DNA from: an uncultured delta proteobacterium
GTDB lineage: Bacteria; Myxococcota_A; Polyangia; Haliangiales; Haliangiaceae
NCBI GenBank assembly: GCA_963848295.1
Contig: CAWKDB010000011.1
Span: 608,001-672,000 of the forward strand
Reading direction: 5' to 3'
Length of the DNA stretch: 64,000 nt
Position 1 is the first letter of the stretch. Each line of letters opens with the position of its first letter. The notes beneath the pieces were generated by a model. That model searched no databases. It was not told the DNA's origin and saw nothing but the letters and a program-made list of their open reading frames with translations. This document shows, one piece after another, positions 5,827-13,699 of this stretch. The position numbers and the translations under genes are program-made.

Positions 5827-6756
5827 ATGACGCTCGATCCCCAAGTCCGCCAGAAGATCGACCAACTCGTGTCGTCTGATTCCGTCGTTTTGTTCATGAA
5901 AGGCACGCGCAGCTTCCCGCAATGCGGGTTCTCCGCGGCGGTCGTGAACATCCTCAACAGCCTGATCCCGAAGTACAGCACGGTCAACGTGCTCGCCGAC
6001 GTCGACATCCGCGGCGGCATGAAGGACTACTCGGACTGGCCGACGTTCCCGCAGTTGTTCGTGCGCGGTGAGTTCGTCGGTGGCTCGGACATCGTCCGCC
6101 AGATGCACGAATCCGGCGAGCTCGAGAAGAAGCTCGGCGATCTGGTCGTGGTCCCCGACGCCCCGACCGTCACGGTGTCGGCGCGCGCCGCGACCGAGCT
6201 CAAGGGCGCGCTCGAGGACGGCGGCCCCGGCGACGTCATTCACCTGACCATCACGCCGGCGTGGGAGCACCAGCTCGACATCGGACCGAAAGAAGCGAAG
6301 CACGTCACGGTCGAGACCGGCGGCATCACGCTGCAGCTCGATCGGGCGAGCGTCGCACGTGCGGCTGGGGTCTCGATCGACTTCATCGAAGATGCGACCG
6401 GCGCCGGGTTCAAGATCGAGAACCCGAATCGCCCGGTCGTCGTGCGCGACATCGGACCGCGCGAGATCAAGTCGATGATGTTCCACGGCAAGATTCCGAA
6501 GATGTGGGACGTGCGCACGCCGAAAGAGCGCGCGTTCGCGTCGATCGACGGCACCGTGCTGCTCGACGACGCCGAGATGGCGGCGATCGAAGCGCTGCCC
6601 CGCGACACCCCGCTCGCGTTTCACTGCCACCACGGCGGTCGTAGTCGCGCCGCGGCCGAGCACTTCTTGAAGCTCGGCTTCAAGCAGATCTACAACATGG
6701 CCGGCGGCATCGACGCCTGGTCGCGCGACGTCGACCCAGCAATTCCGCGCTACTAA
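5827..6756 (+). CDS. grxD: Monothiol glutaredoxin (Grx4, CGFS) fused to a Cys-less A-type-carrier-like domain and a rhodanese domain
   Basis: [33 protein letters not shown]; middle [15 protein letters not shown]-terminal DVRT..CHHGGRS..GGIDAWS..DP.IPRY. Confidence 0.9.
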
Positions 6757-9023: not shown

Positions 9024-10451
9024 CTACGGCGCGGGTTGCTCGATCCGCGTCGCCGGCATCGTCTTGCCGCCGACGAGGAACAGCAGCTGCTTGACGTGGC
9101 CGCCGTCTTTCTCGAACACCACGACGCCCTGCAGCTTCTCGATCCAGAACTCGTGATCGGACAGCGGCACGAGCCGGACCTTCGGCTCGCCGGGGCCTTG
9201 GATGTACAGCCGTTTATCGAGCGTGACCTCGATCGGCGTGCCGCTGAAGTCGTAGCGACCGACGTACGTCGCGAGCGCCGCCGCGGTCGGGAACACCGGC
9301 GGGCTGACCGTGTCTCCCGCCGCGACCCTGTAGAGCATGTCGACGAGGCGATCGACGATCGTCACCGCGCTCGATGCCATGATCACGACGCCGCGCCGCG
9401 TTTTCGGATCGAAGCCGATGAACGAGTGATAGCCGCCGGTATTGCCGTTGTGCCAATAGCGGCCGTTGGCATCGATCTCCCAGCCGAAACCTTCGTTCGC
9501 CCCCGGGTTCTTCAACTGCGGTTCTTGCGTCAGCTTGAGCACCGAGCTCAGCGGTTGGTCTCGGGCGCTCGCCTTCGCGAGCGGACCGAGCGCGGGTGAA
9601 TCGCTGGCCGCGTCCATCTCGGCGGCGATCAGCGCGAGTTGGTCGTGCACACACGAGATCACGCCACCCGCGCCGGCGAGCGGTCCCCACGTCCAGGCCG
9701 GCGCCGGTTGCAGATCGTCGTTCGTCCCCGGCACGACCCGCGCGCGCGCCGGTTCTGGCACATGGACGAACGTGTCGTGCAAGCCGAGCGGCGCGAGCAC
9801 GCGTGTGGTCAGCGCGTCGGCGTAGCTCGTGCCGACCTTGCGCGCGAGCGCGAAGCCCAAGACGCCGACGCCGTAGTCCGAGTACGTGATCTTGGTGCCG
9901 GGCGCATCGGCGAGCTCGGTGTGCACCAGATCCTGATAGAGCGCATCGTCGTCGTAGCCGACATACGGATCGGGCGCGTGCTCGGCTTCCGCGCGCGACG
10001 GCGGCATCTTCGGCAACCCCGAGGCGTGTAGCGCGAGCTCGCGCAGCGTGATCTCGGCCTTGTCTTTCGTCGGTGCGGTCACCCCGGGCGGCAGCAGCTC
10101 GGACAGCGGCGTGTCGAGCTCGACCTCGTGGCGCTGCACCTCATCGGCGAGCAGCAGCGACGTATAGATCTTCGACAGTGAGCCGATCTCGTACAGCGAG
10201 TGCCCGGTCGGCGGCTTCCCCCCGGGGCCGGTGCCGAAGCCGTAGATCTCGACCTTACCCGAGTCGTACAGCCCGACGACGATCGAGTTCGCGACTTGCG
10301 CATCGATGAACGGCTTGACCAGCGCGGCGATCGCGATGCGATGCGGGCCGTCGGGATCGCTGTCGTGCGGCGCCGGTGATTTCACCGGTTCCGGGCGGTG
10401 CGCGCTACCGCATGCACACGCGAGCGCCGCGAGCCACGCCGCGCGCGTCAT
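9024..10451 (-). CDS. Serine hydrolase (beta-lactamase class C-like) lipoprotein with C-terminal extension
   Basis: EIGSLSK (SxxK); LALHASGLP; YSD; WHNGNTGGY; signal peptide ending in ACAC. Confidence 0.9.
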   Translation of the reverse strand: MTRAAWLAALACACGSAHRPEPVKSPAPHDSDPDGPHRIAIAALVKPFIDAQVANSIVVGLYDSGKVEIYGFGTGPGGKPPTGHSLYEIGSLSKIYTSLLLADEVQRHEVELDTPLSELLPPGVTAPTKDKAEITLRELALHASGLPKMPPSRAEAEHAPDPYVGYDDDALYQDLVHTELADAPGTKITYSDYGVGVLGFALARKVGTSYADALTTRVLAPLGLHDTFVHVPEPARARVVPGTNDDLQPAPAWTWGPLAGAGGVISCVHDQLALIAAEMDAASDSPALGPLAKASARDQPLSSVLKLTQEPQLKNPGANEGFGWEIDANGRYWHNGNTGGYHSFIGFDPKTRRGVVIMASSAVTIVDRLVDMLYRVAAGDTVSPPVFPTAAALATYVGRYDFSGTPIEVTLDKRLYIQGPGEPKVRLVPLSDHEFWIEKLQGVVVFEKDGGHVKQLLFLVGGKTMPATRIEQPAP

Positions 10452-11002
10452 TTCCGGACTCTCGGCACATCGCGATCGAGGACGGTCTTGCGTTCGTCGC
10501 GGGCCGCGGCGCGGATCGACTCGTCGCAGATCGCGCGAACGTGATCCGACAGCAACTCGGCCACCGCGTCACCGCAGTTCATGCCCGAGCGATCCTTGAT
10601 GTACTTCTTCATCTTGGACACGACGATCAGCATCTCGCGCTCGGCGTCTTGCAGCTTCACGCCGCCGTCGCCGGTGACGACGGTCGAGGTCGTCACGGCG
10701 GAAGGTCCGGCATCGCCGACCATCCGTCGCACCGCCGGCGCCGCGGCGGGCTTGGCGACCTCGATCTCGACCGCGCCGCTCGCGACCTCTCGGTCCCAGG
10801 CCTCTTTGGTCGGCGCCTTCGCATCGACCGCCCAGGCGTCACGGTGGCGGAGCATCGCGACGTGGCTATCCCAACAAGGCACCGTACAAAAGACCAACCG
10901 GGTGCGAGCGCGGTTGCATGTCGAGACGCTGCATACCCAATGCGCGGCGTTGAACGGAATCGGGTTCCGGCAGGCGCTGCACTTTAGCCAGGCTTCGGCC
11001 AT
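10448..11002 (-). CDS. Bacterial histone-fold protein with N-terminal ZZ-like zinc finger
   Basis: N-terminal CxxC-x12-CxxxxC-x9-CxxxC-x3-H-x5-H; C-terminal LIVVSKMKKYIKDRSGMNC..LSDHVRAICDESIRAAARDERKTVLDRD resembles Bdellovibrio Bd0055-type histones (RKTV..RD motif). Confidence 0.8.
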   Translation of the reverse strand: MAEAWLKCSACRNPIPFNAAHWVCSVSTCNRARTRLVFCTVPCWDSHVAMLRHRDAWAVDAKAPTKEAWDREVASGAVEIEVAKPAAAPAVRRMVGDAGPSAVTTSTVVTGDGGVKLQDAEREMLIVVSKMKKYIKDRSGMNCGDAVAELLSDHVRAICDESIRAAARDERKTVLDRDVPRVRK

Positions 11003-13014
11003 TGGTAGATCTACTTTCCCTCGTTATGAGTTTCCGTACGACCCCCGTGGAAACCGTGCTTGCGGATTTCCCGCACACGGCTTGCGGGAGGGCTCTCGTG
11101 CGAGCGGTACTGGGTAGCCTCCGGATATTGGACGGTGCCGCGCAGGCGATGGAGTCCGAAGCTTTCGAAGTACTCGCGCGTCCATGTCGATGCGACGCGT
11201 CCATCGAGTTGGCGACCCGCGCGCTTCACGCGCAGGCTGCGTAATCGATCGCGCACGTAGCTGTCGATCTGGTTGAAGCTTCTCGCGGCGTTCCCGGTGC
11301 CGAAGTACACACCCCATCCTCGAAGGATCGGGTTGAGGTCGGCGATCACCTCGCGGAGATCCGCGTGGCACCGTCCTCGTTGTGTCTTGTCTCGCACCTT
11401 CTGTCGGATCCGCTTCATCGCGCGTTGCGACGGCTGGCGATGCAGGAAGTACTTTCGCTTTCCTTCTCGCTCCAGAATCGCACCGCTCAGACGTTTGCGG
11501 AAATGACAGCCGAGGAAGTCGAAGCCCTGCTTTCCATCGTAGAGCTCCACTCGCCTCGTCTTGTCGGGATGCAGCTCGAGACCGAGACGATGAAGATATT
11601 TCCTCACGTCGCGTTCGGCGTCTTCGCATTGTTGCTTCGTCTTGCACACCACGACGAGATCGTCGGCGTAGCGCACCAATGTTCCCAGCGGAGCACTGTG
11701 ACGAGTCCACAACAGGTCGAGGACGTGCAGGTAGATGTTCGACAAGAGTGGTGAGATCACCCCTCCTTGCGGAACCCCGGTCGTCGTCGACCGGAGCTCG
11801 CCGTCTTCCATCACGCCTGCTTCGAGCCACTGCCTGATCAGCTTCAGCACCCGTCTGTCCGAGACGCGTCGTTCGACGAGCTTCATCAGCTTGTCGTGAT
11901 CGATGCTTCCGAAGTAGTCGCGAATATCGGCGTCGAGCACGTGATGGTGCTGGTATCCGAGCTTGCGCACGGCCTCCAACGCCATCAGCTGGCTTCGCTT
12001 CGGCCGGTAACCGTACGAGGACGGCAGAAAATCCGCCTCGAAGATTGGCTCCAGCACGAGCTTCGCCGCCATTTGCACCACTCGATCTCGGACCGTCGGT
12101 ATGCCCAGCGGTCGCTGCTTTCCATCTGCCTTCGGAATGTACCGGCGCAAGGTCGCGCTCGGCCGGTACTCACCTGCACGCAACACGTTGCCGAGCTCTT
12201 CGGTGAAGCGCTCGACGCCGTACTGCTCCACCTCCGCGATCGTCTGGGCGTCGAGCCCAGCCGATCCACGGTTCTTCTTCACTCGCTTCCATGCTTCGCG
12301 AAGGACGTCACTCCTCCACATGCGATCGTACAGCGCATGGAATCGTCGCTCCGGTGACTGCTTGGCCGCTGCACCCAGTCGCCTCTGAAGTTGTCGCACG
12401 TTGTCGAACGGCCCACGCCGCTCGGGGTGGTTGGAACCGGTCGTGCCGGTCATGCCCTTACGCTTACCTTCGTCGACGACACACCCTCTCTCGTGGCCCT
12501 TCCCTCCGACGGCGTTTTGCGGCGCCGTCCTCGTCGGTACTATGACCCCGTCGGACTTCCGCTGCGCGATGATGCCCTTGGCACTCGGCCTGTTGGCGTC
12601 ACCCTGCCACGACGATGGCTGCGCAGACGGATCTCTCGTGTTCCGTGATGATCCTTGTACGCGCGCTGCTCCCCGTACCCCGCTGGGGTCGACGTCGTGC
12701 TCCAGAGCTCTCGTCGTCGATGTTGCCTTGCCCGTGACATGAGCGGCTCGGCCCCCAGATTGTTTCTCTTTCGAGGCTGCAGACTTCACTTGATGTTGCG
12801 GCTCGCGTACTCGCTCCTCGCTGATCAGCTCGCGCTGACTCGCTCGCTTTCGATGCCCGGCTTCAGCCGTCGGAATCTCTTCCTCTGCTGCGGGCCTGCT
12901 ACTCGGCGCTCTGGCGCTTTCCGAGACGGGACTTTCACCCGCTAGATCATCACAGCGTGACGGCAGTTTCCCGCCGGGATCCCCGGCGAGGCTTCTGTCG
13001 TCGTCACGACGCAC
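11000..13014 (-). mobile_element. Group II intron inserted at the start codon of the histone gene
   Basis: 5' GTGCG at 13014; domain V AAGCCGTGTGCGGGAAATCCGCAAGCACGGTTT (11083-11051, AGC triad); domain VI ending GATCT-A-CCAAT(G); internal RT ORF; lower GC than the flanks. The 3' boundary is 11000 or 11001. Confidence 0.92.
11011..12453 (-). CDS. ltrA: Group II intron reverse transcriptase/maturase, no HNH endonuclease domain
   Basis: AW.RVK.NRGSAGLD; IPKADGKQRPLGIPTVRDRVVQ; SYGYRP; DADIRDYF; GVPQGGVISPLLSNIYL; RYADD; FDFLG; domain X LNPILRGW..YF. The frame stays open upstream to 13017. Confidence 0.95.
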   Translation of the reverse strand: MTGTTGSNHPERRGPFDNVRQLQRRLGAAAKQSPERRFHALYDRMWRSDVLREAWKRVKKNRGSAGLDAQTIAEVEQYGVERFTEELGNVLRAGEYRPSATLRRYIPKADGKQRPLGIPTVRDRVVQMAAKLVLEPIFEADFLPSSYGYRPKRSQLMALEAVRKLGYQHHHVLDADIRDYFGSIDHDKLMKLVERRVSDRRVLKLIRQWLEAGVMEDGELRSTTTGVPQGGVISPLLSNIYLHVLDLLWTRHSAPLGTLVRYADDLVVVCKTKQQCEDAERDVRKYLHRLGLELHPDKTRRVELYDGKQGFDFLGCHFRKRLSGAILEREGKRKYFLHRQPSQRAMKRIRQKVRDKTQRGRCHADLREVIADLNPILRGWGVYFGTGNAARSFNQIDSYVRDRLRSLRVKRAGRQLDGRVASTWTREYFESFGLHRLRGTVQYPEATQYRSHESPPASRVREIRKHGFHGGRTETHNEGK

Positions 13015-13027
13015 CATGACGCGCAGC

Positions 13028-13699
13028 CTACCGCGGCCGAGCCCTCGCCGTCGCGAGCCAGTGACCGGCGTGGGTCTGCCAGCCGGCTTCGATCACGACC
13101 GGGAGGCGCACCGGATCGACCGCGACCGCGGCGCACGTGCCGTCGGCCTCGAGGGTGACCTCGACCTCGGTGAACCCCACGTAGCGCCTCACGATCGGGT
13201 CGATCGCCTTGTAGATCGCCTCCTTGATCGCGAAGCGGAGCATGACCTGCGAGCCGTCGATCGGTTGCCCGTCGCCACGGGCGCGCTCGCGTTCGGTCAG
13301 GATCCGCCGCGCGATGTCGACTCGCGACGGCTCGGTGCGCTCGAGATCGATGCCGACGAAGCCGGCGCTCGCCGCTGCGACGATCGCGACCGCGCGGGTG
13401 GCGCCAATTGCCTCACCGCGAGGATGCTTGTGGCTGATCGAGCCGACCCAACCCGCCGGCAGCACCGGCGCGCCGCGGTCGTCGCTCGTCACAGGATGAT
13501 CGGCGAACGCAGGGGCGTGCTCGACCAGCAGCGCGCGCAACGCGGTGCGCCCGGCGATCCATTCGGTGCGGCGCGCGGGCGCGATCGCTGCGGCGAGCGC
13601 TTGTTCGATCGGCGGCAACGCGGCGAGCACGCGATCCACATCGCCGGCGACGAGCTCGATCGCTTCGCACGTCCCGAACCGCGTGATCAGCCGAGTCAC
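13028..13699 (-). CDS. 4'-phosphopantetheinyl transferase (EntD/Sfp-like)
   Basis: RR.EWIAGR.A; GAPVLP.GWVGSISHK; VGIDLE; FAIKEAIYKA. Confidence 0.9.
   Translation of the reverse strand: MTRLITRFGTCEAIELVAGDVDRVLAALPPIEQALAAAIAPARRTEWIAGRTALRALLVEHAPAFADHPVTSDDRGAPVLPAGWVGSISHKHPRGEAIGATRAVAIVAAASAGFVGIDLERTEPSRVDIARRILTERERARGDGQPIDGSQVMLRFAIKEAIYKAIDPIVRRYVGFTEVEVTLEADGTCAAVAVDPVRLPVVIEAGWQTHAGHWLATARARPR

Follow-up and report, generated by a model that had tools for sequence, protein, structure and literature searches.

The window (the whole 64,000-nucleotide stretch of DNA analysed here) carries on its minus strand a histone gene that is separated from its own start codon by a group II intron. 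In the direction of transcription, a 4'-phosphopantetheinyl transferase (PPTase) gene (13028..13699), a possible source of read-through RNA, is followed by a putative -10 box, TAGGCT (13025..13030); by the native histone start codon (13015..13017), which ends the 5' exon and lies 7 nt behind the box; by the 2,015-nt intron (11000..13014, GTGCG...CCAATG), which sits directly after this codon; by the histone reading frame of 184 residues (10448..11002); and by a gene for a beta-lactamase-family serine hydrolase (9024..10451). The PPTase stop codon TAG (13028-13030) also forms the first half of the putative box. The sequence-only reading had taken the ATG at 11002-11000 as the start of the histone gene, but these are the last three bases of the intron; the gene's own ATG is found at 13017-13015.

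The histone reading frame that was read on the minus strand is real. Its product is identical to the intron-free allele of a close relative, G104, at 172 of 184 residues (93%), and since 2,234 of 2,766 candidate proteins match it at E<=0.001, the frame is not a product of chance. These homologues fall into 613 clusters at 50% identity, the named ones being Kofleriaceae or Myxococcales, and a by-eye count found the histone-bearing protein in 23 of 25 same-genus genomes (one match partial). Neither Pfam nor NCBIfam names the histone; both gave sub-threshold hits only. A search for a hidden internal start that could yield a short histone found none: the 32 orthologues have no in-frame ATG in the linker with a box or a Shine-Dalgarno (SD)-like word, and the histone gene itself has no internal ATG, GTG or TTG with either.

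The N-terminal residues 1-64 (10811..11002) form a ZZ-like double zinc finger, judged from conservation, the structural model and weak matches to ZZ folds. This part contains six cysteines (8, 11, 24, 29, 39, 43) and three histidines (21, 47, 53). In an alignment of 80 homologues, conservation reaches at least 90% for the six cysteines, H47 and H53 but not for H21, so the earlier count of six Cys and two His is right if it is limited to conserved residues. As zinc ligands the model suggests C8/C11/C39/C43 and C24/C29/H47/H53. Folded alone, the finger reaches a pLDDT of 89.8; Foldseek places the p62 ZZ domain in 9 of its first 10 rows, but weakly (best E 0.15), and in the fold comparison the best Z was 4.2, with none of at least 5. 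The proposed finger fusion is thus borne out by the eight conserved ligands, while its likeness to ZZ folds is weak. Residues 65-121 (10640..10810) comprise a helix and a flexible linker, with a conserved RRxV-like motif; as had been described, the stretch is rich in Ala, Pro and Thr (19 of 57 residues), and model confidence is low here.

The C-terminal residues 122-180 (10463..10639), which hold the motif quoted by the sequence-only reading, form an HBb-type histone fold with a truncated alpha3. The domain matches Bd0055/HBb in a phmmer search (E 1.5e-7), and its model (mean pLDDT 85.2) superposes on HBb/Bd0055 in Foldseek with an rmsd of 0.7 Å over 58 columns at 38% identity; the suggested Bd0055-type fold and the structural comparison proposed to check it therefore agree. 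A homodimer model of residues 115-184 scored 0.84, with 0.00 for the best control, contact agreement of at least 98% between runs and pLDDT of at least 89. Of the reference cases, 20 of 30 solved pairs attain the mark for such a pass, as does 1 of 23 single chains. Since HBb-like dimers have already been solved, this prediction may show likeness only. The alpha1 lysines K130, K132 and K136 (spacing 11/13/17) and the R171-K-T-x4-D178 motif are kept, and the residues R48 and N52 of FtF tetramers are replaced by Ala and Asp in a by-eye alignment to HLp. HBb/Bd0055 (PDB 8CMP, 8FVX, 9EZZ, 9F0E) has the same lysines and RKT motif and likewise lacks the tetramer residues, but HBb is abundant, probably essential and without a finger, whereas the histone here has one.

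On these grounds the gene product is almost certainly a ZZ histone. The available text of Schwab 2024 (PMC11390915) defines this class as a C4 + C2H2 ZZ finger on a bacterial-dimer-like histone of the alpha3 family, with D0LYE7 of Haliangium ochraceum as an example. The earlier statement that such fusions are described and functionally uncharacterised agrees with that text, and PMC12701072, in the part available, lists ZZ histones merely as a subfamily. Our histone shares with the published description the N-terminal C4 + C2H2 finger, the linker and the bacterial-dimer-like histone. Seven of the eight ligands in the available Fig. 4 legend map onto it with a fixed offset of 12; the eighth, C53, would map to 41, where our histone and its homologues have C43 instead (PMC11390915). 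By itself, the histone is a further member of this already described class, for which we found no experimental study in the literature searched. Its leaderless-type promoter and intron-derived start codon are features that do not appear in the ZZ histone description as far as the available text goes (PMC11390915).

The histone stop codon overlaps the hydrolase start as ATGA (10451-10448), from which translational coupling had been proposed. The overlap exists, but its proposed meaning is not supported. In a comparison of 34 histone loci with about 1.5 kb of flank (some shorter; one locus, L027, comes from the unpublished genome G010), a same-strand ATGA overlap occurs at two, those of the source genome and of its closest relative G104. 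The hydrolase lies upstream of the histone gene and divergent from it in 14 of the 34 loci, and the PPTase gene downstream and convergent in 19, so the synteny survey speaks against a conserved pairing; we rejected a functional link between histone and hydrolase on this count. The histone gene is apparently inverted between the PPTase and hydrolase genes in the source genome and G104 relative to most relatives (L002-L027, L133-L138). The overlap would therefore be recent and suggests no shared function. Elsewhere in the window, on the plus strand at 5827-6756, lies a gene for a three-domain protein with a monothiol glutaredoxin, a middle part resembling Fe-S-biosynthesis proteins (weak hit) and a rhodanese.

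The insertion in front of the histone frame has the anatomy of a group II intron: domain I, domains V and VI, a reverse transcriptase (RT) with YADD (11670-11659) and a maturase are present, and RT and maturase are its only protein domains. Rfam matches are RF02003 at 12944-12791 and, below the gathering score, RF00029 at 11085-11001. Domain V (11083-11051) and domain VI occupy 11000..11083, and the putative branch-point A is the seventh base from the intron end, at 11006. The EBS1 loop CAUGUC (12736..12741) is complementary to the 5' exon end CATG, a putative EBS2 lies at 12765..12769, and J2/3 reads CGA (12551..12553), in which gamma = C would pair with the terminal G. In G104 the empty site consists of the box, 7 nt, a single ATG and the 93%-identical histone, so the insert amounts to 2,015 nt including one extra ATG. 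From DNA alone, the 3' splice boundary is ambiguous within the repeated ATG. We place the whole ATG in the intron because gamma is C in 64 of 65 loci among the listed relatives (out-group rows with gamma G end in C), because the branch A is then seventh from the intron end, because the first C of EBS1 faces an exon G in 54 of 55 listed relatives, and because the codons at the two intron ends differ in 12 of the 55 introns for which both ends are known, mostly with GTG before and ATG after. This last difference also implies that the 3' codon is not a copy of the target. The splice sites could instead lie one base earlier (AT|G), which would give the intron an extra 5' G and an AU end inside the start codon, as in the IIB1 clade. 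The Rfam model does end at AU, and the DNA leaves room for such a shift, but gamma C and the EBS1 pairing with the exon G speak against it, as does the branch position, which is seventh only with the G inside the intron; moreover, locus L083 has ATT before the intron start and still the same 3' end. We consider this earlier boundary very improbable and the ends at 13014 and 11000 highly probable. One contig of the sequencing run X1, possibly from the source sample, begins exactly at 11000; the joined, intron-free form was not found among the contigs of the sequencing runs.

Three more pieces of the intron family occur in the source genome: an internally deleted copy of 0.98 kb with GTG before and ATG after (C11:151742-150761), a lone 5' stub following TAGACT-7-ATG (C10:54752), and a 3' part preceding a ketopantoate-reductase-like gene (C2:436389). 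No empty allele of the second intron copy was found in five genomes searched. At two loci of relatives (L097:~3830 and L062:~3830) a second group II intron appears to be inserted, nested, in domain V of the start-codon intron.

The position behind a start codon is a property of the whole intron family. Our set was drawn from the best 80 RT relatives listed, in named genomes, of which 64 loci at >=55% identity were kept, or 65 with that of the window; 16 loci were set aside as an out-group. The 5' end could be located from the intron letters in 59 of the 65 (six by hand from low-scoring hits) and was not found in six. Among these listed relatives, which come from many phyla, the intron follows ATG, GTG or TTG in 55 of the 56 with enough flank, and TANNNT stands 6-8 nt before that codon, again in 55 of 56. 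By comparison, the same spacing was found for 26 of 3,364 start-type codons in the flanks, and shuffled sequences gave a mean of 2.2 and a maximum of 7. A 3' end could be assigned for 59 of the 65, and 52 of these 59 read CTACCAATG; the pattern used required a final G, and the six misses comprise two contig ends, two interruptions of domain V and two cases with CCAATG by eye. The terminal triplet of the intron is ATG or GTG in 58 of 59, and 42 of 48 show a frame of at least 100 codons that starts from it, whereas the two other frames reach this length in 8 and 19. The host genes behind these introns are mutually unrelated and mostly intact, and some are housekeeping-like. Cultured carriers of such introns include Sorangium sp. 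So ce176 (L041), Nannocystis pusilla (L080) and Pelomonas dachongensis (L051). In one genome, G105, eight copies with identical starts all sit (8/8) at TANNNT-6 nt-RTG with C at box position 5, a spacer-6 and C-at-5 pattern for which the background in the source genome is 207/456 and 29%; kinship cannot explain this, because these are eight independent insertions in one genome at the same target pattern. A search with the 5' pattern of the G105 intron did not recover the body of that intron. Further junctions from the same genus agree with the rule in 12 of 12 cases. Taking these counts together, it is very probable that the intron inserts after a start codon with an upstream TANNNT, the arrangement of a leaderless gene.

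The histone orthologue genes look leaderless themselves: TANNNT precedes the start by 5-9 nt in 29 of 32, and an SD-like word does so in none. A sigma-70 scan did not find a full -35/-10 promoter. None of the 32 other orthologue loci carries the intron. Across the source genome, TANNNT occurs 6-8 nt before ATG at 1,233 sites, 879 of them with 100 or more codons, as against 561 and 517 at control spacings; this excess suggests that the genome has hundreds of leaderless genes.

The target appears to be read by base pairing. EBS1 has the form CAU(N), and its letters vary together with those of the exon: among the 55 listed relatives position -3 pairs in 48 (permuted mean 43.0, reached by 8 of 2,000 permutations) and position -4 in 46 (permuted mean 30.1, reached by 0 of 2,000), although permutation over related introns overstates significance, the rows not being independent. 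Pairing at exon positions -5 and -6 is no better than permuted in the same 55. A variable stretch upstream, which we take as the putative EBS2, covaries across the listed relatives with positions 4-7 of the box region: agreement is 0.81 at position 5 (expected 0.39), 0.69 at position 7 (expected 0.40) and 0.48 at position 4 (expected 0.23), and an invariant A faces the invariant T. In this analysis one row was dropped and one was mis-picked, and an ungapped check was made. The copy in the histone gene fits at two of the four box positions and has the lowest duplex score of the 55. A first candidate for EBS2, in the 12780 region, is complementary to the exon here; it was rejected as near-invariant across introns with different targets. 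The element would find its sites through two base-paired contacts, EBS1 to (N)ATG and EBS2 to the -10 box.

In a quick tree of the listed relatives a single branch (SH-aLRT 98) sets the start-codon introns (66 rows) apart from the rest, and in a careful tree 17 of 29 chosen rows stand together with support 88/96; the trees contain no references for g2, chromosomal class F/g5, g6 or U1-U3. Their length in the listed relatives is 1.84-2.10 kb. The g1/g3 references are 34-39% identical and fall outside the clade, the g1 references Rh.js.I1 and Sr.me.I2 in both trees, but joining the clade to g1 is not rejected (p-AU 0.206). Class C (IIC) introns insert after an intrinsic terminator and have a short domain V with a CGC triad; the intron here has a 33-nt domain V with an AGC triad and no terminator-like site in 10300-13300, features that do not fit that class. 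The nearest out-group rows among the listed relatives include Bacillota introns that follow terminator-like stretches. Four Paenibacillaceae out-group introns (L087, L103, L096, L108) likewise appear to have a terminal G, gamma being C wherever it could be located, and two of the four follow such stretches.

Published work, to the extent of the text available, offers two comparisons. With the endonuclease-less classes C, g1-g6 and U1-U3 our intron has in common an RT-X protein without an endonuclease (En) domain, but it differs in its full-length domain V, its AGC triad and its promoter and start-codon target (PMC3552965, PMC8919778). The published g1/g3 introns end in AC/AT (PMC3552965), those at start codons in ATG, and Miura 2022 states that the 5' ends of g1 introns could not be found and, in the available text, describes no start-codon target (PMC8919778). 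The IIB1/CL1 introns recall ours in another way, since they too insert at the translation signals of host genes: Avi.groEL and EcKTE56.groEL sit at start or stop codons (PMC12584367). According to the text available of that source, their CL1 protein includes an endonuclease domain, a 300-700-nt insertion lies near their 5' end, and those members that were studied sit inside a stop codon. The intron here, in contrast, is about 2.0 kb long, encodes RT and maturase only, follows a complete start codon by a -10 box and ends in ATG; it does not fit the IIB1/CL1 clade, there being no En family hit and the RF02003 domain I match starting 70 nt after the 5' end. Targeting of promoter and start codon is, in the literature searched, a so far undescribed variant of group II intron targeting; that literature was mostly open-access, and Michel et al. 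2007 may bear on the matter.

How would the histone still be made? We suggest that the TAGGCT box directs transcription to begin at the native AUG, which would give a leaderless mRNA, and that a ribosome starting there would read an open frame through the ribozyme as the RT/maturase. This frame (11011..13017) has 668 codons open from the host ATG, crossing domains I-III and later also V and VI, and it stops 8 nt before the spare ATG at the intron end; after this stop the histone would be re-initiated at the terminal AUG. Since the intron that follows the native ATG ends in an ATG of its own, production of the histone likely continues, and such re-initiation is the most probable means. Among the listed relatives the host ATG is in phase with the RT frame in 36 of 59, and the frame is open from it in 29 of 59, or 23 of 26 in the nearest subclade; an alternative start is the internal ATG at codon 189. 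Tight coupling of this kind is not general, because in most listed relatives about 100-125 nt separate the RT stop from the spare ATG, and in only 7 is the distance within 45 nt. An SD-like word precedes the spare ATG in 19 of 59 listed relatives and, by eye, is absent here. Re-initiation as the main route to the histone is, in our judgement, an even call, with splicing as its main rival.

Precise splicing, for example of PPTase read-through RNA, would likewise restore the native mRNA. The histone would then come mainly from spliced mRNA, with a 5' exon of 3 nt or with read-through from the PPTase gene, which runs in the same direction and stops 10 nt short of the native ATG, and the terminal ATG would be a by-product of the gamma-gamma' pairing and the branch site. 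The intact branch A, gamma and EBS1 fit such a view, as does the apparent terminal G of L087 and L103, two out-group introns that lie behind terminator-like stretches. A terminal G alone, however, does not require the ATG or GTG triplet that 58 of 59 listed relatives have, and the internally deleted copy at C11:151742-150761 keeps its spare ATG in front of an intact gene. A difficulty for our own reading is that a leaderless transcript, with a 5' exon of only 3 nt and no IBS2, offers no evident way to splice. We regard splicing as the main route as possible but somewhat unlikely. The insertion might also have silenced, or strongly reduced, a dispensable histone gene, the locus being a recent hit: G104 lacks the intron, as do the 32 other orthologue loci, and the genome has another small histone. 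Against such a loss stand the intact histone frame, 93% identical to the empty allele, and the mostly intact genes, housekeeping-like ones included, behind the introns of the listed relatives, and we hold it improbable. Our preferred route thus continues to be re-initiation at the spare AUG.

The ZZ histone would be a double-zinc finger tethered to an HBb-like fold, a predicted homodimer that likely bends DNA. In the source genome a second histone of 73 aa (C10:964902 onward) has a Lys/Ala-rich N-tail, a strong SD and an FtF-like Arg/Asn before its RKT, and it is likely the bulk histone. A 59-aa ZZ-like finger without a histone is encoded outside the window (C10:517840-518013 of the source genome); a second, finger-only match occurs in 24 of 25 same-genus genomes by a by-eye count, its stand-alone status being confirmed in the source genome. 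According to the available text of PMC11390915, the Bdellovibrio ZZ histone has low expression, the fingers lack a conserved peptide pocket, and a second histone is present in only half of the proteomes that contain a ZZ histone. In Bdellovibrio, the available text of Hocher 2023 (PMC10627809) names the second histone as Bd3044, which cannot readily replace Bd0055 and which we infer to be the ZZ histone of that organism, and a 2025 preprint (10.1101/2025.09.24.678257), in the part available, reports that both Bdellovibrio histone transcripts peak late in growth.

From the low expression in Bdellovibrio, the unconserved pocket, the separate 73-aa histone and the lack of any acidic side chain from position 4 to position 44 in the finger, we suggest that the ZZ histone may be an accessory, low-abundance DNA-bending dimer whose finger would bind a non-histone partner or nucleic acid, while the 73-aa histone would do the bulk packaging; we rate the chance of this accessory role as balanced. 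The finger could instead read the basic N-terminal tail of the 73-aa histone, much as eukaryotic ZZ domains read H3. Such a tail is encoded in the same genome, and the best fold matches of the finger (best E 0.15) are ZZ domains that bind N-termini, but the missing acidic residues and the existence of a finger-only paralogue argue against tail reading, as do the unconserved ZZ pocket and the presence of a second histone in only half of ZZ-histone proteomes (available text of PMC11390915). We think tail reading a rather remote prospect and retain the accessory role with another partner.

Taken jointly, our results are probably best read as a ZZ histone with an accessory role, whose gene carries a start-codon intron that finds its targets by base pairing and shares a leaderless, bicistronic transcript with it. 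More tentatively, and with less than even confidence, we propose that this widespread intron lineage homes to transcription start sites: it would base-pair with the -10 box and start codon of leaderless genes, probably while the promoter bubble is open, take over the host promoter and first AUG so that its RT is translated through the ribozyme, splice with a 5' exon of 3 nt and supply a replacement AUG.

The known targets of group II introns are fixed sequences, terminator hairpins, attC sites and housekeeping genes' start or stop codons. If true, recognition of promoter and start codon would give the element hundreds of targets per genome (1,233 sites against 561 control sites in the source genome), and insertion there would mean guaranteed transcription with little damage to the host. 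It would also offer tests of how short a 5' exon can be, of a ribozyme that doubles as coding sequence and of retrohoming in a transcription bubble. Insertions of this intron would also mark leaderless genes in uncultured bacteria and mislead the annotation of start codons. The ZZ histone here offers a workable subject for finding out what ZZ histones do, and if homing to transcription start sites is true, a chromatin protein would have become the second cistron of a retroelement.
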